Virus record (IMG/VR): IMGVR_UViG_2684623127_000005
Strand: one strand, 5' to 3'
Origin: a virus
Lineage: Duplodnaviria; Heunggongvirae; Uroviricota; Caudoviricetes
Length of the DNA stretch: 64,000 nt
The position numbers and the translations under genes were made by a program. The notes under the pieces are model-generated. The model ran no database searches and was not told the origin of the DNA. It saw only the letters and a program-made list of their open reading frames with translations. Position 1 is the stretch's first letter. Every line of letters starts with the position of its first letter. This document shows positions 1 through 8,021 of this stretch, piece after piece.

Positions 1-1287
1 TCAGAGTCTGGCTCTATGGGGCATGTATGGGACACTCTCCGTCAACTGCTTATTGAGTAGTTCTATTTGCCCGATATTGTTATCTTTCATCCATGCTCCG
101 TAAACGTTGAATACCATTTGTGCATTTGCATGGCCCATTTGGTTTGCTATGAAGCTTGGATTCGCTCCTGCCGATAATGCCCAGCAGGCATAAGTATGCC
201 TAGACTGATAGGCTTTTCTGTGCCGCAGTCCTGCTCGCCTTAATGCAGATGCCCAGGAATCTCTGATGGAATCTGCTTTATAGTGGTGACCGACTTGCTG
301 GCATTTTTTTACCAGTTGCGGATTAAAAACAAACGTGCATTCATGGCGTGCGGTGCGACCGAACTCCCGAAGCTTGACGTCAATTTGATACTGAGGGCCA
401 AGTCTTGTCATTTCAGCCTGGCTTTTCAGGGCATCAACAGCTGGTTGAACAAGATGAATAACACGATCAGTTCCCGCTTCTGTTTTTGGTAGAGTGAACT
501 CCCCGAGTTTTGTATAATTACGACGGATAGTCATTGTTTTAGCTTTTAAATCAATATCCTCCCAGGCGAGAGATATTAGCTCACCGTGACGAATGCCTGT
601 GTATACTGCTAAGGACCACAGGTTTTTTGTTTGTTGATGGTGACAGGCATCAATAAAACGAATAAATTCGTCACGTGTGAGCGGATCTGGTTCTGTTCTG
701 GATCTCTTTAATGGTGTCAGGCCGTTAAATGGGTTTGACACGATATAGCCGTTATCAGCCGCAAATTGAAACATTCCTGCAATTGTCGTCATGTAGTAAT
801 TAACCGTAACTACTGACCTCCCTTTAATCGGCGTTGTTTTTCCGTTAGAAAGATTATGATACCCGGTCAATAAATCTTTCCTGATAAACAGTAAATCTTC
901 CTTTGTTACCGACGAAGCAAGACGTTTTTCCCCTATGCGAGGAAGCATGTTTCTCACCACGGATTGATACCGACTGAATGCATTACTTCCTATCTCAATT
1001 TTCTTAAGGTCCAACCATTTTTCCGAAAGTGCCTTAACGGTTATCTCTCTTTTTCCCAGACCAAAGTGTTTCAGGTTAGGGGAATTAGGGAACTGCGCGG
1101 CGTAGTCGAAACTCCCCATTCTGATTGCAAAACAAACAGAAGTGCGAAGCTCACCAGCGATCTTCCGGTTTTTGGCGGTGTCAGGAACACCGAGGTTTTC
1201 TCTGACACGTTTGCCATTATAGTGAAACCATATACGGAGTGATCCTCCATGGTTTTCAACGCCTGTCGGGTATGATGCGTTACTCAT
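1..1287 (-). CDS. int: Phage tyrosine integrase (prophage 1); C-terminal 12 codons overlap the att core
   Basis: 428-aa ORF with the C-terminal catalytic region of tyrosine recombinases (R..HxxR..Y pattern, ...RHTYACWALSAG...); sits at the prophage left end next to an excisionase-like gene. Confidence 0.9.
   Translation of the reverse strand: MSNASYPTGVENHGGSLRIWFHYNGKRVRENLGVPDTAKNRKIAGELRTSVCFAIRMGSFDYAAQFPNSPNLKHFGLGKREITVKALSEKWLDLKKIEIGSNAFSRYQSVVRNMLPRIGEKRLASSVTKEDLLFIRKDLLTGYHNLSNGKTTPIKGRSVVTVNYYMTTIAGMFQFAADNGYIVSNPFNGLTPLKRSRTEPDPLTRDEFIRFIDACHHQQTKNLWSLAVYTGIRHGELISLAWEDIDLKAKTMTIRRNYTKLGEFTLPKTEAGTDRVIHLVQPAVDALKSQAEMTRLGPQYQIDVKLREFGRTARHECTFVFNPQLVKKCQQVGHHYKADSIRDSWASALRRAGLRHRKAYQSRHTYACWALSAGANPSFIANQMGHANAQMVFNVYGAWMKDNNIGQIELLNKQLTESVPYMPHRARL
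16..36. repeat. attL core candidate (21-bp exact direct repeat ATGGGGCATGTATGGGACACT, partner at 44949-44969)
   Basis: Exact 21-bp match read directly from the sequence; lies inside the int 3' end; flanking bases differ on both sides. Confidence 0.5.
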
Positions 1288-1320: not shown

Positions 1321-1575
1321 TTAACCGGAACTTGCATTTTTGGCACCTGGTTGTTTCTGGTTTTCGATCCATCGCATAATTTCTTCGATGTTGTACAGGC
1401 ATTCACTGTAATGCCCCGGATCACCTTCTACAGCGTAATGGCGGTATTCTTTTCCCTGCATCCATGACTTTCTTCTGGCTCGCTCGATGGTGCCAGGCTT
1501 TAGCCCTGTTGATGCAATGAGGACTCTCTCCGTACACCATTTGCTGGGGGTTATCTGATAGATGATTGTCTGCAT
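1321..1575 (-). CDS. xis: Excisionase-like small DNA-binding protein
   Basis: 84-aa ORF immediately upstream of int on the same strand; small basic protein in the usual xis position. Confidence 0.5.
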   Translation of the reverse strand: MQTIIYQITPSKWCTERVLIASTGLKPGTIERARRKSWMQGKEYRHYAVEGDPGHYSECLYNIEEIMRWIENQKQPGAKNASSG

Positions 1576-2178: not shown

Positions 2179-3006
2179 TTATTTAATCTGGATAAATGGT
2201 GTATTGGCACCACTGGTCATGTATTGCGGCAGTGTACCGTTCCACTTGTTGATGGCTTCCAGCTCCATGACGCCAGGGTTCTGGCGCAGAGCTTCGCCGC
2301 GTAAACGAATGGCATCGGCTTCTGCCAGGGCTTTTGTTCGAATGGCATCAGCCTGTCCGGCAGCTTCTGCACGCAGCATGTTGGCCTCCGCTTCACGTTG
2401 CTTGACTTCCTGTTCGCGCTGCAGGGTTTTCTGGTTTGCCGTGACTTTGGCGTTAATGCTGTCGATAACGGTTGGCGGGTATTCCGGTTTACCTACATAA
2501 GAGAGGCTCATTACCTGAACGCCGATGGGGGTCATCTCTTCCTGAATGTCTTTAAGTGCGGCATCCAGTAGTTCAGACTTGCCGCCGTCGATAAATTTGT
2601 CGGTGGTCATTTTGCTGGCCAGTCGATTGAGTGCGTCGGCGATCTTCTGGCGCAGGTCAGTGGCGGTAATGTCATCCACGCCTTTGCGGTAGGTCTGAAA
2701 CACCGTGGTAACTTTGGATGGATCAACTTTGTAGGCAACACCGATGTGATAGCCGATGGTTGTGCCGTCACTCATCTGGAAGCTGAACGGCTCATCGTAG
2801 GTCTTCATTTGTTTGAAGGTTGGGAAGATGTAAACTTCAGTATTCCAGCCAGTCCAGTAGCGACCAACACCGACCACCTCACCGACGCCTTTATCGTCGC
2901 CCAGTTTATTTACTTTGATGCCAACATTACCGGGTTCAACGCGATCGCAGCCGACAAGGCCAATGGTCGGCAGAACAATGGCTAAAGCAAAAATAATTTT
3001 TTTCAT
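2179..3006 (-). CDS. SPFH/band-7 (stomatin/prohibitin-like) family lipoprotein
   Basis: 275 aa; N-terminal lipoprotein signal (...LPTIGLVGC); central SPFH-type domain followed by a charged Ala/Glu/Arg/Gln-rich coiled-coil tail (REQEVKQREAEANMLRAEAAGQADAIRTKALAEADAIRLRGEA) typical of the HflK/C, QmcA and prohibitin family. Confidence 0.7.
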   Translation of the reverse strand: MKKIIFALAIVLPTIGLVGCDRVEPGNVGIKVNKLGDDKGVGEVVGVGRYWTGWNTEVYIFPTFKQMKTYDEPFSFQMSDGTTIGYHIGVAYKVDPSKVTTVFQTYRKGVDDITATDLRQKIADALNRLASKMTTDKFIDGGKSELLDAALKDIQEEMTPIGVQVMSLSYVGKPEYPPTVIDSINAKVTANQKTLQREQEVKQREAEANMLRAEAAGQADAIRTKALAEADAIRLRGEALRQNPGVMELEAINKWNGTLPQYMTSGANTPFIQIK

Positions 3007-3191
3007 TTTTTATCCTTAGTGAAAGAAAGACCCTTGTAAATGGCATAAATGCAGGGCGGGGTCAGAAACGCCAGTGCAAAGCCAGAAGTAACTGCTATCG
3101 TATCCTTCATGGATATAAGGAACGGAACGAGTAATCCGTAAATGCATGCGATAATTGCCAGTAAAATTACTATTGTGAAATACAGTCTCAT
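3003..3191 (-). CDS. Small two-helix membrane protein, translationally coupled (ATGA overlap) to the SPFH gene
   Basis: 62 aa with two hydrophobic helices (IVILLAIIACIYGLLVPFLI and AVTSGFALAFLTPPCIYAIY); its stop overlaps the SPFH start codon. Confidence 0.5.
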   Translation of the reverse strand: MRLYFTIVILLAIIACIYGLLVPFLISMKDTIAVTSGFALAFLTPPCIYAIYKGLSFTKDKK

Positions 3192-3375
3192 TGGTATGTG
3201 GTATCCCGATATTTTTAACTGACAGACAGCGCAATAAAGAGAATAATGATTTCTGTTATTGTCAGTACTGTGGCAAGGATTAAAAGCAGTTTTACTCTGC
3301 TTAATTCACGGTTGTTTTTCATATAAATGGTTAGTAAAAAACGGAAGAATTATATTCTTCTTAATATTTAATGTG

Positions 3376-3948
3376 TCACTGGCCTTCTGGCATACCATGA
3401 GTATTCAGGTCGTTAATCATTTCATCCAGAAGGAGTTCAAGCCCTTCTCGCCCCATGTCTGAAACAATGAAACCTTTATCTGGGTATGTAATGAGCATTT
3501 TCTGATAAAGAAACAGCGCTCTACCCATTCCTTCTGCCTCGCCGTATTTTTGAATTAAATTCCATTCAATATACTGCTGTAAGGCAAACCGAATGGGGCC
3601 GGGATATATCGTCATAACCCCATGCTTCCCGTTATATATTACGGCGCGATCTGTTGTTCCGTGTTCATTCGGGACATCAATTGTGCCGTTCTTGTCTTCT
3701 TCTTCGTTGATGAATGTCGTCACATACAACCATCGCCACTGGGCAACCTTCATCTCAACCGGAAGTTTTCCCAGTAATCCTGCTTCGTCAGCTTGCGCGA
3801 GACACTGAAGGATACGTAAACCTCGCACATTAGGAGTATCGAATTCTCCAGCATCCAGACGGCGTATGGCGTCGTGATAATCAATAGTCATACTGCCTGT
3901 TTGTATACCATTGGCTGTTGCTTCAGCCTGGAATTCAGCGTATTGCAT
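3376..3948 (-). CDS. Hypothetical protein (190 aa), early-left operon
   Basis: Long ORF on the same strand with compact spacing to neighbours; no motif recognised. Confidence 0.5.
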   Translation of the reverse strand: MQYAEFQAEATANGIQTGSMTIDYHDAIRRLDAGEFDTPNVRGLRILQCLAQADEAGLLGKLPVEMKVAQWRWLYVTTFINEEEDKNGTIDVPNEHGTTDRAVIYNGKHGVMTIYPGPIRFALQQYIEWNLIQKYGEAEGMGRALFLYQKMLITYPDKGFIVSDMGREGLELLLDEMINDLNTHGMPEGQ

Positions 3949-3953
3949 GAAAT

Positions 3954-4136
3954 TTATTCCTCATCTTCATCTGCTGGTGCAATAACGTCATATCCTGCCT
4001 TTTCTGCAATAAACAGGAATATTGAAAGATTTCCTACAAATTCATCGTCATGAACATGACGAATTAATATTACTTTCCCGTTTTTGATGGTCAGCAATAC
4101 TCTGGTTTGTTCGTGTTCTGCTGTTTTCTGATGCAT
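3954..4136 (-). CDS. Hypothetical small protein (60 aa)
   Basis: Short ORF ending 6 nt before the 190-aa gene; acidic C-terminus. Confidence 0.3.
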   Translation of the reverse strand: MHQKTAEHEQTRVLLTIKNGKVILIRHVHDDEFVGNLSIFLFIAEKAGYDVIAPADEDEE

Positions 4137-4334
4137 TATTATCTCCCGTATGCTTTACGCAGAAACAAGCAGGCAATATGCATGTGATTTTTCCCGTGTT
4201 GTGCAATAAGGCAGGCTGTTTTGTGTGATGCCTTATGTTTTATAAAAGTCATAATAAAACCTCCTGTGGATTAAGTGTGTGATAATCCCCGGCGATTAAG
4301 CCGTAATATAGTATCTGGAGATGACTTGTTCTAT

Positions 4335-4535
4335 TTAACTGGATAGTTCTTTTTCAGCTGCTGCTTCAGCATAGCAACGTACAAATTCAAGAACTTCATC
4401 ACCTGTTCTTTTTATTGCGTCGTTGTCTGACATTTGTAATACGATAACTGCGCATAATAAATTATGGATATTGTTTGCAAAGGAATCCGGTGCCAGGCAT
4501 AAGCCTTCATACTTATCATGGATATTGCCAGTCAT
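4335..4535 (-). CDS. Small protein homologous to the N-terminal domain of the adjacent tandem-HTH protein
   Basis: About 66 aa from the internal Met; DSFANNIHNLLCAV...GDEVLEFVRCYAEAAA aligns with DSFALTIANLLSAV...GFDVLEFTHEYALAIA of the upstream gene; start abuts that gene's stop. Confidence 0.4.
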   Translation of the reverse strand: MTGNIHDKYEGLCLAPDSFANNIHNLLCAVIVLQMSDNDAIKRTGDEVLEFVRCYAEAAAEKELSS

Positions 4536-5269
4536 TGTTGCTGCTCCTTTGCTTCTGATTTTCCCGTTAACAACCACATCAGGTCACAATTAAGCGCACT
4601 GGCCAGTGGTACTATATGATCAGCAGGAACTTCACAGATGCCGCATTCCCAGTCGTTTATGGGGTCACTGTAGGTATGAATCATGCGGGCAAGATCAGAT
4701 TCGGTTAATCCCAGCTTTGTACGGGCGCTTTTGATGCGTGCGCCAATACTTTCCGCATGGACTTCAGTCGTATTTACACGAATAGCTGACTCGCTGTTTT
4801 TTTCACTTAGTAGAGAAAGCGGATCGCATCCCAGGACGTTTGCCAGGGGGATAAGCATGCTGATGGTTGGCTCGAACTCTCCACTCTCCCATTGCAGAAT
4901 AATCTCTTCGTCAAGATCGAGTAGTCTGGCTAGTTCGGTAGTCGTCAAGCCGCAGGCTTCACGTTTGGTGCGTATGCAGGCTATCTTGTTGCCTGATCGG
5001 ATAGAATGTTGTTGTTTTGTCGATGCGATCGCTAAAGCATATTCATGAGTAAATTCTAGCACATCAAACCCAACCTCTTTTAATCGCGTATCATCTAGGA
5101 GGTTGAAGGTGCGAACAGCACTGAGCAGGTTTGCGATGGTTAATGCAAAAGAATCGAGATCTAAATCATCACATAAAACCTTGTTGTAAGTATTGAGGCT
5201 ACATGTTTTTGGTGTTGTTTGTAAGGCTTCCATATCATCACCATGCAATTCTAAGTTGAAGTTAATCAA
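4532..5269 (-). CDS. Tandem helix-turn-helix (XRE-type x2) regulator with a novel N-terminal domain
   Basis: 245 aa; two XRE-like HTH segments (GLTTTELARLLDLDEEIILQWESGEFEPTISMLIPLANVLGCDPLSL and LGLTESDLARMIHTYSDPINDWECGICEVPADHIVPLASALNCDLMWLL); first gene left of cI. Confidence 0.6.
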   Translation of the reverse strand: MINFNLELHGDDMEALQTTPKTCSLNTYNKVLCDDLDLDSFALTIANLLSAVRTFNLLDDTRLKEVGFDVLEFTHEYALAIASTKQQHSIRSGNKIACIRTKREACGLTTTELARLLDLDEEIILQWESGEFEPTISMLIPLANVLGCDPLSLLSEKNSESAIRVNTTEVHAESIGARIKSARTKLGLTESDLARMIHTYSDPINDWECGICEVPADHIVPLASALNCDLMWLLTGKSEAKEQQQ

Positions 5270-5381
5270 TATATAATTGATGGTGAGATATTATGTGTCA
5301 GGAAAACGACTGTCAATTAAAAATTGATAAACTTGATTTTTTTTGTGATGGATGACCAATAATTTAATTTAAAATCAATAA

Positions 5382-6071
5382 CTAACCAAATCTGTTGATA
5401 TTGAATGGTACAGATGAGATTACTTTTGACTGGATATAGAGCAGCGCCATTCCCTCTTTTTCGATGCTCCATGGCTGATAGTTGGGATTGTCTGATAAGA
5501 CCATGATCTTGCTTCCAATTTTTTGAAGTCGTTTGACGTAACATTCGCCATCAAAGCAAAATGCATAAATGCCATCGCCGTCAAAGTAAGTTACTGTTTT
5601 ATCTAAAAACAGTAAGTCTCCCGGGGAGATTGTTGGGGCCATGCTGTCCCCTCTGGCGTTACCGATTTCTATGTTCTTGAATGCTCTGTTACCGACCAGG
5701 CGGCGGGCATATTCAGGATCAAGTTCTATTGAGCGTACTACATCAATTAGATCTCCCCGTACATGAGTTCCGTCGCCGCAACTGAATTCAACATCCAGTA
5801 CATTGAACACAACGCTGTCTTCTCTTGTATGGTGTTTTTCAGCTGAAGAGAATGTCGATGAGGCATCTTCACCCAAAAACCAGGATTGTGGATAACCACT
5901 AATTACTGATAGCTGTGCAAGTTTATCGCTTCTGGGAAACGTCTTTCCTGTAGTCCAGTATTGTACTGATTGCGCGCTTACACCCAGCTTACGGGCTAGT
6001 TCAGCCTGACTCCAGCCTTTCGTTTTCAGCATCATTGCTATCCGATTTTCTGTGCTTTTTACATTCTTCAT
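5382..6071 (-). CDS. cI: CI-type prophage repressor (HTH_XRE N-terminus + LexA/S24-like peptidase C-terminus)
   Basis: HTH (WSQAELARKLGVSAQSVQYW) followed by an S24-like domain with GDSM and a downstream Lys (YVKRL); divergent from cro; start taken at the internal ATG at 6071 (AGGAA RBS), ORF reaches 6101. Confidence 0.85.
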   Translation of the reverse strand: MKNVKSTENRIAMMLKTKGWSQAELARKLGVSAQSVQYWTTGKTFPRSDKLAQLSVISGYPQSWFLGEDASSTFSSAEKHHTREDSVVFNVLDVEFSCGDGTHVRGDLIDVVRSIELDPEYARRLVGNRAFKNIEIGNARGDSMAPTISPGDLLFLDKTVTYFDGDGIYAFCFDGECYVKRLQKIGSKIMVLSDNPNYQPWSIEKEGMALLYIQSKVISSVPFNINRFG

Positions 6072-6203
6072 GGTGAGTTCCTGTCGAAGCTTTATACACA
6101 TAAATATTAACTTGATTTTAGTGTATTCGATCCTTTTGAAACTTGCATGTTAATTTATTCTTGATGTATTCTTGATTTGTAAAGTTAATGTTGGAGCTGC
6201 GCT
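6072..6203. promoter_or_regulatory. cI-cro intergenic operator/promoter region (OR) with repeated CTTGAT-containing motifs
   Basis: Tandem TATTCTTGAT at 6156-6165 and 6167-6176; AACTTGATTTT at 6109-6119 recurs left of cI at 5330-5340 (OL candidate). Confidence 0.45.
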
Positions 6204-6461
6204 GTGATAAAACTGAATGATTACGACATGTTGCGTAAATTGATCCCTCAAAACGCCATAGCGAGATACATCGGTGTTACGCCACAAGCGGTGAATCTGT
6301 GGTTTTCTAAAAACTCCGTTCCTTCTCGTTTTGTTTTACGGGTGTGTGAATTGGTTGAATGGAAGGTTACTCCGCATGGGTTAAGACCTGATCTATACCC
6401 TTATCCCGAAGATGGAATTCCTGATTCGTTACGAAAATCAAACGGTATTACCAGAGATTAA
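6204..6461 (+). CDS. cro: Cro-like HTH regulator
   Basis: 85-aa ORF divergent from cI with HTH (QNAIARYIGVTPQAVNLWF); GTG start at 6204 or ATG at 6228. Confidence 0.7.
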   Translation: MIKLNDYDMLRKLIPQNAIARYIGVTPQAVNLWFSKNSVPSRFVLRVCELVEWKVTPHGLRPDLYPYPEDGIPDSLRKSNGITRD

Positions 6462-6506
6462 AGACTGACTGTCACAAGCAGTAATTCACGATGAATACGT
6501 TTTGGC

Positions 6507-7250
6507 GTGAGTTCTGAAATGTCATCCTCAAGGAGCAATCAGATGAACACCGCAATTTTTAACGATAAAGCATCCATGACCAGCGTTGAGATTGCAGAGC
6601 TGGTGGGCAGCCAACACAAAGATGTTAAACGCAGCATTGAAAGACTCATGGGGAAGGGAGTTATCCGAAGTGCGCCAATGGCGAATTTCGAAATAATCAA
6701 CAACTTAGGATTGAAAAGAAATGTAGCTGCTTACGTATTCGAAGGTGAACAAGGCAAACGCGACAGTATCATTGTTGTCGCGCAGATTTGCCCTGAATTC
6801 ACCGCCCGCCTGGTAGACCGCTGGCGTGAACTGGAAGAACAGATCCGTAAGCCAATGAGCGAAATCGAAATGGTTGCCGCGATGGCTCTTGAAGCCGTTC
6901 GCCAACAGAAACGGATCACTCAGGTGGAAGAAAAAGTCATCCACGTTGCTGAAACAGTTGAGCAAATTAAAAAGGGCACTATTCGTGAGGGCTATGCCGG
7001 ATATCGCCAACTGAAAGCAAAAACCGGTTTGTCAGATGATAAATGCTGCAATCTGGTGAACGCCTATCAAATTCCTACAGACACACATGAGTTCATGACG
7101 CCGGACGGATTGTTGTCACGTCGCGCAATTGTTGCTGTGGAACCGTTTATGGCTGCTTTTTATCGGGTTATGGAGGAAGCAGAACCGCGAGGGACTCGCT
7201 GGTATCACCCGAAAATGGGGTTATTTCAGGTTATTGGTTGGCAGCGGTGA
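6507..7250 (+). CDS. rha: Phage regulatory protein, Rha family
   Basis: N-terminus MNTAIFNDKASMTSVEIAELVGSQHKDVKRSIERL is typical of Rha-family regulators; probable start at the internal Met near 6543. Confidence 0.65.
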   Translation: MSSEMSSSRSNQMNTAIFNDKASMTSVEIAELVGSQHKDVKRSIERLMGKGVIRSAPMANFEIINNLGLKRNVAAYVFEGEQGKRDSIIVVAQICPEFTARLVDRWRELEEQIRKPMSEIEMVAAMALEAVRQQKRITQVEEKVIHVAETVEQIKKGTIREGYAGYRQLKAKTGLSDDKCCNLVNAYQIPTDTHEFMTPDGLLSRRAIVAVEPFMAAFYRVMEEAEPRGTRWYHPKMGLFQVIGWQR

Positions 7251-7658
7251 AAAAAAGCCGGGAGTAACCCGGCTCACTCAACATCAATAACGGGGAGCTG
7301 TTTCGCATAAAACGGCTCCGAAACATCCAAGAACAGTTCTAAAGATATCAGCAGCTATATGATCATTTCAAGACCAAATATTGATTCTGCAATTTCGGGA
7401 CGTTACACTGTCTCCGCACCTTATAAAGCGGGTGCCGGGGGTCGCAGCCCGGAATTGCTCGAGGCGATATACGACGCGCCAGCGTCTTTTTTATCGTCCA
7501 TGCTCGCGCACGCCAGAATTATGGTGGGCTGGGCAGGGGAGCCGAAAGGCTCGCCGGTTTCCTTGAGCGCCGGTACTGCGAACCCTGTTCAGTTCACCAC
7601 CCATGAGTTTCGCAGCTCCGGTGGTGGAAGTTTTTCACTGCTCAAGGAGGCTGCCATC

Positions 7659-8021
7659 ATGGCTACAGTCCCAACTTCCCCATACCTGAAAATTGAAGTT
7701 GTCAACGGCAAGGCCGTTATTTTCTCCCTGCATGTTGCCTGCCACTTTAAGCGCATGCACCAGAACATCGTCGACAAAATCGAGTATCTGAACTGCTCAC
7801 GCGAGTTTTTTACCCGCAATTTCATACCGGGTACTTATCACATCTACGGTGACTCCCTGCGTGGTTATTACATCACCCTTGATGGTCTGATGATGCTTCA
7901 GCTTGGGTTAAGTCTACGCACAATGCGGTACTACGAGAGCTGCATTGAAGCATTCCATGAGGCAGAAATCAGCCTCAGTCACACCGCTTTCCGCCGTAAT
8001 CAATGGGAGGTGCGCCCATGA
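7659..8021 (+). CDS. Hypothetical protein (120 aa)
   Basis: ATG at 7659 preceded by an AAGGAGG RBS; the upstream part of the 7359 ORF is low-complexity and probably non-coding. Confidence 0.4.
   Translation: MATVPTSPYLKIEVVNGKAVIFSLHVACHFKRMHQNIVDKIEYLNCSREFFTRNFIPGTYHIYGDSLRGYYITLDGLMMLQLGLSLRTMRYYESCIEAFHEAEISLSHTAFRRNQWEVRP

Follow-up and report, generated by a model that had tools for sequence, protein, structure and literature searches.

We analysed a 64,000-nucleotide stretch of viral DNA (IMG/VR record IMGVR_UViG_2684623127_000005), called the window throughout; it represents a lambdoid prophage, with position 1 at the prophage's left end. The analysis centres on two adjacent genes that lie leftward of the cI repressor gene on the minus strand. 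The first, the big gene (4532-5233), encodes a 233-residue acidic protein with an N-terminal α-hairpin followed by two helix-turn-helix (HTH) domains, HTH1 and HTH2. The second, the small gene (4335-4535), encodes a 66-residue free hairpin. An earlier note on this DNA had described the pair as a tandem-HTH regulator with a small paralogue of its own N-terminal domain, standing in the place of N, and had suggested that the paralogue acts as a decoy or partner. We find that the theme of a regulator accompanied by a domain-only paralogue, built on a new small domain family and occupying the first early-left position of N-less Shiga toxin (Stx) phages, is real and conserved. The role proposed below for the free hairpin is put forward far more tentatively.

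Domains and start of the big protein

The big protein (net charge -14; isoelectric point, pI, 4.75) is 100% identical to a protein annotated as 'transcriptional regulator' in LC567830. It scored 56.8 bits against Pfam HTH_3 (PF01381; cut-off 23) in two stretches and passed the gathering score for the XRE / Cro-C1 HTH superfamily. An alternative TTG start at 5269, giving an open reading frame (ORF) of 4532-5269, was rejected in favour of the ATG at 5233. The ATG is most likely the start, because the PHROG profile matches only from residue 13 onward when translation is taken from the TTG, because a Shine-Dalgarno-like GGTGA stands 4 nt upstream, and because the homologous ATG, after GGTG(A/G), starts the gene in phages R49 and phi467.

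AlphaFold predicted a hairpin and then two independent HTH domains on flexible linkers (predicted local distance difference test, pLDDT, 71; predicted template-modelling score, pTM, 0.33). The hairpin, assigned to type A, covers residues 1-77 (5003-5233, minus strand) with helices at 26-45 and 49-77 (pLDDT ~80), and no Pfam or NCBIfam model matches the N-terminal ~80 residues. HTH1 (residues 85-143; 4805-4981, minus strand) has a near-invariant XRE fold with an acidic 'recognition helix', DLDEEIILQWESGEFEP. HTH2 (residues 162-225; 4559-4750, minus strand) is a 434-repressor/Cro-like XRE domain that is absent from some relatives. It matched the 434 repressor by phmmer (E 2e-6) and P22 C2 by Foldseek (template-modelling score, TM, 0.88-0.91), and the HTH domains aligned to P22 C2 and 434 repressor/Cro with TM 0.8-0.9.

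Two XRE domains joined by a flexible linker in one chain are also found in Wmk of the Wolbachia prophage WO and in engineered single-chain 434 repressors. Unlike the big protein, neither has a hairpin or a free paralogue, and the big protein is not a member of the Wmk family (NCBIfam score 42 bits against a cut-off of 300). Nor does it belong to DicA (NCBIfam NF007257), the name given to its phi467 homologue: the score was 61.7 bits against a cut-off of 101, from HTH2 only.

The small gene encodes a paralogue of the hairpin

The small protein, whose hairpin is designated type A', matched phrog_4587 (E 1e-35). The N-terminal domain of the big protein and the small protein were aligned by BLASTP with 21/44 identical residues (48%; E 5e-9), and the two proteins cross-matched each other's families, phrog_4587 and phrog_4836, both at E ~1e-5. 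A family hidden Markov model (HMM) detected exactly two ORFs in the whole 64 kb, the big one (E 4.5e-28) and the small one (E 2.8e-14). AlphaFold predicted the same α-hairpin in both; in the small protein (pLDDT 88, pTM 0.72), a short N-terminal beta turn, YEGLCLAP, precedes helices at 16-34 and 39-65. The anatomy given in the earlier note, an N-terminal domain with two XRE-type HTH domains followed by a gene for a homologue of that domain only, is thus borne out by the two HTH_3 stretches, the significant alignment, the PHROG cross-matches and the shared predicted fold.

The ATG of the small gene overlaps the TGA of the big gene as ATGA (4532-4535). The big gene of most relatives stops at a TAG three codons before this point; in the window that codon reads CAG (4532-4546), which adds QQQ and accounts for the overlap. 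An AAGGAG ribosome-binding site (4544-4549, minus strand), also found in L028-L030, lies 8 nt upstream of the ATG inside the last codons of the big gene. The ratio of nonsynonymous to synonymous substitution rates (dN/dS) of the small gene was 0.18 among close copies, with six codons changed only synonymously, six conservatively, and neither frameshifts nor stops; against the C-terminus of phiP27 L08 it was 0.33 at a dS of 1.3. As judged by these codon comparisons, the small gene is coding and under purifying selection.

The 66-residue protein corresponds to the C-terminal half of the 117-121-residue L08-type proteins (P0004), and its start is a methionine internal to L08. This relationship would fit a decaying remnant, that is, an L08-type gene truncated by a deletion and left without a function of its own. 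Such a view is hard to reconcile with the ribosome-binding site, with a frame that is intact in every locus, with dN/dS values of 0.18-0.33, with the presence of the 66-residue protein in hundreds of sequences in the searched set, or with the confident AlphaFold model, and we consider it very improbable. The codons upstream of the small-gene ATG were also examined as a possible L08 relic; this was rejected, as the DNA alignment there is that of the 3' end of the big gene in another frame.

The pair lies behind a PL-type promoter with putative immunity operators

A strong, near-consensus PL-type sigma-70 promoter (TTGACA-17-TAATAT; 5288-5316, minus strand; 10/12 in a promoter scan) drives the big and small genes, and the same -35/-10 arrangement is present in the type-A relatives R49 and phi467. 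One palindrome, TCAATTAAAAATTGA (5313-5327), overlaps the -35 element, and another, TCAATATATAATTGA (5266-5280), is situated just downstream of the start site; the counterpart of TCAATATATAATTGA is TCAATTATAACTTGA in R49 and TCAATTTTAACTTGA in phi467. The exact form TCAAT-N5-ATTGA occurs in 64 kb only as these two copies. The relaxed motif T-N-AAT-N5-[AC]TTGA gave six strand-matches in the window, all at four sites, namely the two at the promoter and two in the cI-cro intergenic region (TAAATATTAACTTGA, 6101-6115, and TTAATTTATTCTTGA, 6150-6164); none of 100 shuffles (0/100) reached six. Since the motif is shared by the promoter and the cI-cro region only, the palindromes at 5266-5280 and 5313-5327 are read as operators used by the immunity repressor or by Cro, which identifies the promoter as a PL. 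Relatives with other immunity types carry different PL palindromes, which again resemble their own cI-cro regions. The alternative that the PL palindromes are autoregulatory sites of the big protein was rejected: the palindromes vary with immunity type, the HTH domains do not, and the relaxed motif recurs between cI and cro.

The window is closely related to the long-tailed Stx2d phage Stx2_112808 (LC567830), with 99.9% identity over 4200-5400 and 99% identity over 10000-34000, and prophage matches to 4200-5400 were found in 101 of 5426 complete E. coli genomes, in serogroups O145, O111, O26, O157, O55 and others. Its early region has the phiP27 layout. The phiP27 genes L10 and L08 are true homologues of the pair: the big protein matched phrog_4836 (E 3e-92), the small protein matched the C-terminus of phrog_5451/L08 (E 8e-18), and the same gene order is kept in phiP27, PhiR49_2, ASU11 and phi467. 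Unlike the big protein, phiP27 L10 carries a type-B hairpin and a single HTH domain. Given that the operators of its promoter recur only in the cI-cro region, the big gene is the first PL gene, and the two genes are the first PL genes of an N-less, phiP27-like long-tailed Stx2 phage. They make up the first transcription unit left of cI; the earlier note had likewise called the big gene the first leftward gene after cI.

That the pair stands in the place of N is accurate as a statement of map position. Like N of lambda, the big gene is the first gene of the PL operon and would be expressed at once on loss of cI repression; Pfam and PHROG searches of the early-region genes found no N-like gene between int and cI, and the boxA consensus is absent from the same interval. 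The comparison does not extend to N's job. Lambda N, an antiterminator working through nut sites, is disordered and basic and binds RNA by an Arg-rich motif, whereas the big protein is folded and acidic, has XRE domains, lacks an Arg-rich motif and matches no N family in Pfam or PHROG. An N-like function was rejected on the acidity of the protein and the missing boxA. Membership of the lambda CII family fares no better: there is no Pfam Phage_CII match, and the gene lies leftward of cI, not in the rightward operon. PHROGs 4836, 4587 and 5451 are uncharacterised, and the 'CII-like regulator' label of phrog_4836, for which no supporting test was found, is an annotation, not evidence.

No intrinsic terminator follows cI in the present phage (5330-5381), so transcripts from PRM may read through into the two genes in lysogens; R49, L008 and L012 have a clear terminator, a hairpin with a T-run, between cI and PL.

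As the first products on derepression, conserved across many prophages in E. coli strains that make Shiga toxin (STEC), the two proteins belong to a class of long-tailed phiP27-type Stx phages that has no N. Differences in the early region have been linked to the Stx2 yield of strains (PMC11333237). Published work on these Stx phages deals with how the early region varies and how this correlates with Stx2 yield, and assigns no function to the two genes, and no functional study of them was found in the literature.

The hairpin defines a small family

Both ORFs fit a proposed phiP27 L10/L08 hairpin family by the family HMM, by alignment and by synteny. A profile search of the indexed 5.8-billion-protein set returned 48 clusters, and HMMER run exhaustively on 1.84 billion cluster representatives returned 57 of them. 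Members align without gaps over ~55 residues and share the motif [FY]xG[LF]xLxP..[AF]..NI..L[LI].A ... G[D]..[LI]..A..YA.AA. In order, it consists of [FY]-x-G-[LF]-x-L-x-P, a first helix that contains N-I and L-[LI]-x-A, a loop of polar residues and a second helix with G-[D], [LI] and A, in which Y-A is invariant. The hairpin occurs either free, in proteins of 60-90 residues, or N-terminal to one to three XRE domains (for example P0177, P0188, P0196 and P0206; no viral locus carrying P0196 was found). No Pfam, NCBIfam or PADLOC model covers it, a sequence search of the PDB with the hairpin returned designed helical bundles only, and Foldseek against BFVD gave nothing below E 0.6 (E >= 0.6). 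The hairpin is thus a small family without prior description.

Fused hairpin types vary with immunity, the XRE module does not

At E <= 1e-10, 143 clusters of homologues were found for the big protein, almost all of them from E. coli. By their N-terminal regions they can be sorted into at least nine sequence types (A-I), most without detectable similarity to one another, and the proteins become near-identical from the linker onward. The mosaic junction lies at 4965-4975, in the linker before HTH1, where identity to phages of other immunity types begins. With Stx1 and other phages, megablast identity begins at ~4965-4975 (query positions 1-766/773 of window 4200-5400; hits H12-H20), and tblastn matches to the same phages begin at residue 87. 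Across twelve loci representing eight immunity types, dN/dS was 0.04 for HTH1 (dS 0.78) and 0.10 for HTH2; within type A, the hairpin gave 0.06-0.12 at saturated dS. The single-HTH relatives phiP27 L10, R49, phi467 and L012 keep HTH1 and only the tail of HTH2. This combination is noteworthy: a near-invariant XRE module is kept across otherwise differing phages, an immunity-linked hypervariable hairpin is fused to it, and one or more free paralogues adjoin.

Each fused-hairpin type comes with its own cI, and types E, F and I with short repressors lacking the S24 domain; support is uneven, with three to six loci apiece for types A and B and one or two for every other type. The one-to-one correspondence in the loci examined, short non-S24 repressors included, and the expression of both genes first from PL could be explained if the pair were an immunity modulator or anti-repressor. 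The fused hairpin would then bind its cognate cI or Cro and lock the lytic decision, and the targets of free hairpins would be type-matched repressors, perhaps ones encoded by other prophages. Trans-acting anti-repressors with cross-talk between prophages are known from Salmonella Gifsy phages (PMC3121763). Linkage explains the correspondence equally well, however, as there is no homologous sequence between the left operator OL and HTH1 through which recombination could occur. Among the anti-repressor (Ant/KilAC, Tum and similar), defence and antitoxin families of Pfam, PHROGs, NCBIfam and PADLOC, the small protein matched its own PHROGs only, and the big protein gave nothing beyond sub-threshold generic XRE matches (HipB, MqsA, RstR, RmrA and capH). 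Moreover, cI here has an S24 domain and needs no anti-repressor, and the invariance of the XRE module would be left without explanation. We regard this account as distinctly improbable. Its LexA-controlled form was rejected, since there is no LexA box (CTGT-N8-ACAG) between 3200 and 11300. One-mismatch copies of CTGT-N8-ACAG number 48 over the 64 kb, as compared with an expectation of 20 from dinucleotide shuffles, and none of them lies between 3200 and 11300; the excess probably reflects CTG/CAG codon bias.

Free hairpin genes adjoin fused genes in every locus examined

In 23/23 loci examined (16 E. coli phages or contigs and seven distant IMG/VR loci), the gene immediately downstream of the fused one encodes a free hairpin, so the pair does co-occur in other prophages. 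In two of the seven distant loci, the downstream protein is larger and contains the hairpin. The two genes overlap as ATGA or are 1-5 nt apart in most loci, and the tandem-HTH and 66-residue genes remain together when both flanks change. The free gene takes three forms: the 66-residue protein, a 117-121-residue 'L08' protein with the same domain as its C-terminal half, and a pair of 63-residue proteins. Three free types could each be traced to a single, specific fused type. The 66-residue/L08 type is related to fused type A (47-50% identity, E ~1e-9), s1 of phi467 to fused type C (40%, E 3e-9) and s2 of phi467 to fused type G (33% over 60 residues, E 4e-9).

Arrays of two to three consecutive hairpin ORFs of 61-64 residues, each of a different type, follow the HTH gene in phi467 (L007; 4001-4380), L012 (3961-4340) and L023 (3198-3838).

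Type A is dominant in the contig counts (P0075, P0079 and P0081, >2000 contigs, versus ~600 for the other types), and the matched arrangement of fused A with free A', as in the window, is for that reason the commonest.

A SinR/SinI-like arrangement as the proposed mechanism

In the SinR/SinI (PDB 1B0N) system of Bacillus subtilis and in SlrR/SlrA, an XRE protein with a two-helix oligomerisation element is accompanied by an adjacently encoded protein of ~60 residues that is homologous to that element only. Structural neighbours of the present HTH domains include the DNA-binding domain of SinR. SinI forms a heterodimer with SinR through the shared helices and antagonises the regulator. The present pair differs in that the order is reversed, with the hairpin N-terminal and the free gene downstream, in that one to three HTH copies are present per chain, and in that the hairpin exists in at least nine unrelated-looking types with a free copy that is mostly not matched to the resident type. 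Neither protein matched Pfam SinI or SinR_C at E <= 1. The likeness is one of analogous architecture, not of shared ancestry.

Starting from paralogous, adjacent genes of this anatomy, placed behind PL with operators shared with the cI-cro region and under purifying selection in every part, we propose by analogy that self-association mediated by the hairpin is modulated by the free hairpin, and give this a probability of roughly 0.35. Loss of cI repression would allow PL transcription of an early module of two genes that is conserved in phiP27-like lambdoid phages without N, a group that includes many Stx phages. The first gene would supply an α-hairpin of ~55 residues, capped by an F/Y-x-G-L-x-L-x-P strand and followed by two XRE domains, and the second, translationally coupled here, would supply the hairpin alone. 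The hairpin would serve as a self-association element, presumably a four-helix bundle, and by fixing how the XRE module oligomerises would determine how active that module is; a free hairpin meeting a hairpin of matching type would form mixed oligomers, in the manner of SinI with SinR or H-NST with H-NS, and thereby tune or cap XRE activity. In the present window, where free A' matches fused A, the effect would fall on the phage's own protein. Also in its favour are the 23/23 adjacency with its close spacing, the single fused counterpart of each of three free types and the dominance of type A among the contigs.

The hairpin may be read as a self-association domain because it is constrained within a type and unrecognisable between types, the pattern of a self-interacting surface, and because it is the only candidate oligomerisation element in the single-HTH variants. 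A partial parallel exists in YdaT of prophage CP-933P, in which an HTH-containing domain is likewise flexibly tethered to a helical element. YdaT is a functional CII equivalent whose four-helix bundle sets the oligomeric state needed for DNA binding and which binds a defined inverted repeat (PMC9986795). Unlike the big protein, YdaT is encoded on the rightward side after the cro-like ydaS, has its bundle helix at the C-terminus, lacks a free paralogue and shows no sequence similarity. If the free hairpin does modulate the fused one, the pair would show an oligomeric regulator under 'microprotein' control in a phage.

Free and fused types are usually mismatched

Several results weigh against the proposed mechanism, and the main weakness is that free and fused types do not co-vary and that phages with mismatched types nevertheless keep the free gene. 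The A' free hairpin, as the 66-residue protein or the L08 C-terminus, is found beside fused types A, B, C, D, E, G, H and I, although similarity to A' could not be detected in five of these (B, E, G, H and I). The 66-residue gene of the mismatched phages is intact, with a dN/dS of 0.18. Conversely, the s1+s2 pair occurs beside types A and F, so that phi467 (type A) and L012 (type F) carry the non-matching free types C' and G'. By sequence type, free and fused hairpins are usually mismatched within a phage, and co-variation is absent. The suggestion of a dedicated decoy or partner for the big protein's own N-terminal domain is weakened accordingly, as the co-variation test failed and one free hairpin stands beside eight fused types.

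Structural and regulatory results also count against the mechanism. The AlphaFold model of the big protein contains no confident inter-domain contacts (pTM 0.33), the hairpin fold is generic and structure searches gave no informative neighbour, and a k-mer comparison of the PL regions from nine immunity types found none in all of them, hence no common autoregulatory site. In addition, the link between fused type and cI type, known from few loci, could be pure linkage.

Other readings fit the type distribution better. The strongest of these, which we still judge somewhat unlikely, is that free and fused hairpins have independent functions: the hairpin would be a versatile fold, used both as an appendage of the regulator and in free early accessory proteins directed at host or rival factors, and adjacency and similarity would result from local duplication and domain shuffling at a PL-proximal hot spot, with no interaction of the two products needed. 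It accommodates the mixing and matching of types, the selection that persists on free hairpins in mismatched phages and the small-ORF arrays of two to three in phi467, L012 and L023. It also accommodates the occurrence of free hairpins fused to other N- or C-terminal pieces, as in L08 (121 residues), L022 (138 residues) and L020 (132 residues). All hairpin proteins are acidic, as are many phage host-takeover proteins. Less easily explained in this way are the position of the free gene directly downstream in 23/23 loci, with coupling or 1-5 nt spacing in most, and the observation that the free-hairpin HMM matches nothing else in the 64-kb window or in the loci of relatives. The three separate free/fused type pairs are likewise hard to derive from a single old duplication.

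A second possibility retains type-specific association and moves its target. The hairpin would be a type-specific self-association code, and free hairpins would be trans-acting dominant-negative decoys against matching-type hairpin-XRE proteins of other phiP27-like phages. This would account for three features at once: each free type mimics one fused type, the host phage is usually of a different type, and selection has been kept. It overlaps with the reading of independent functions, both fitting the missing co-variation better than the SinR/SinI-like mechanism does; taken by itself, we think it quite unlikely. Domain-only paralogues on mobile DNA are also known from the H-NS/H-NST and Hha-type modulators, which are unrelated in fold and family. 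H-NST is a dominant-negative partner of a DNA-binding protein's oligomerisation domain and possibly acts in trans. If the free hairpins were such decoys, prophage-prophage interference or cross-talk would be expected in polylysogenic STEC, and it could influence both the choice of Stx phage that becomes induced and the amount of toxin produced.

Conserved adjacency and tolerated mixing of types could also arise, with no need for type matching, from a shared third partner, following the logic of lambda CII/CIII. A constant host factor, such as a protease or chaperone, would act on the big protein via its hairpin, and the free hairpin, by engaging the factor, would protect or time the big protein. 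Group-1 free and fused hairpins share the surface-type residues G11, P16, N-I, Y55 and A56 across large divergence, as such a partner would predict, but the group-2 fused hairpins (types B, F, G, H and I) lack the motif entirely. A constant partner should also hold the fused hairpin constant, as seems to be the case for HTH1, yet no part of the protein varies more than the hairpin. We therefore consider a shared partner unlikely.

DNA binding by the big protein

The premise that the big protein is a DNA-binding regulator was considered separately. HTH1 has a net charge of -6, and its recognition helix aligned to that of the 434 repressor reads D-L-D-E-E-I-I-L-Q-W-E-S-G-E-F-E-P. By sequence comparison only, glutamate stands at the positions of 434 repressor Q28, Q29, K38 and K40, and Q33 is kept; the acidic residues of HTH1 are invariant in the family alignment. 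In HTH2, the positions of Q29, K38 and K40 are taken by Asp, Ile and Glu, and the first helix is still basic. Given an acidic HTH1 with glutamate at the base-contact positions of the 434 repressor, DNA binding by the big protein, or at least by HTH1, is not assured and the premise may be wrong, which is a further point against the SinR/SinI-like mechanism. The ancestral role of hairpin-XRE proteins was probably DNA binding, since distant family members carry ordinary-looking recognition helices. The label of regulator given in the earlier note is itself uncertain, given the acidic recognition helix of HTH1, the domain that is universally retained.

Considering that HTH1 is invariant while the operators differ, the target of HTH1 or of the XRE module must, on this comparative argument, be common to all immunity types, namely a host component or a conserved phage component and not the immunity operators. 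If HTH1 does not bind DNA, the XRE fold would have been recruited for a constant host target.

Neighbouring genes and other observations

The integrase gene (1-1287, minus strand) occupies the left end of the window, and the excisionase gene (1321-1575, minus strand) lies beside it, followed by a leftward block of small genes. The cI gene (5382-6071/6101, minus strand) encodes an HTH and S24 peptidase protein of 229 residues from the annotated ATG (Pfam Peptidase_S24, 63 bits; HTH_3, 31 bits), annotated as CI in LC567830. A YdaS/Cro-like gene (6204-6461, plus strand) is divergent from cI, and Rha/ASH-type genes and then replication genes lie to its right. An Rfam scan of 3000-7500 found nothing in the hairpin-gene locus; its only match was to the Hfq-binding small RNA isrK at 7416-7492 (plus strand; 56.4 bits, gathering score 50, E 1.4e-10), inside an ASH/Rha-type ORF (7359-8021).

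In the left arm, a Band_7/SPFH lipoprotein-like gene (2179-3006, minus strand) overlaps a 62-residue hydrophobic ORF (3003-3191), and the two are kept together in phiP27-like left arms beside DUF5406 (1767-2213) and DUF4222 (1619-1858). A 60-residue protein of phrog_340 (3954-4136, minus strand) shows weak likeness to the C-terminal part of the PHROG 'anti-repressor' families 4792 (E 2.5e-5) and 2379 (E 1e-3); its gene travels with that of a 190-residue phrog_1515 protein (3376-3948).

Between the small gene and the next gene lies a conserved noncoding stretch, TATTACGGCTTAATCGCCGGGGATTAT (4260-4300, minus strand), containing a small CGGC/GCCG stem that is neither a canonical boxB nor a canonical terminator. 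It is upstream of a 37-residue ORF, MTFIKHKASHKTACLIAQHGKNHMHIACLFLRKAYGR (4139-4252, minus strand), which has an AGGAGG ribosome-binding site and is annotated in some GenBank records only. This ORF is kept in ten loci, where most codon changes are synonymous or conservative, and is therefore probably a genuine micro-gene.

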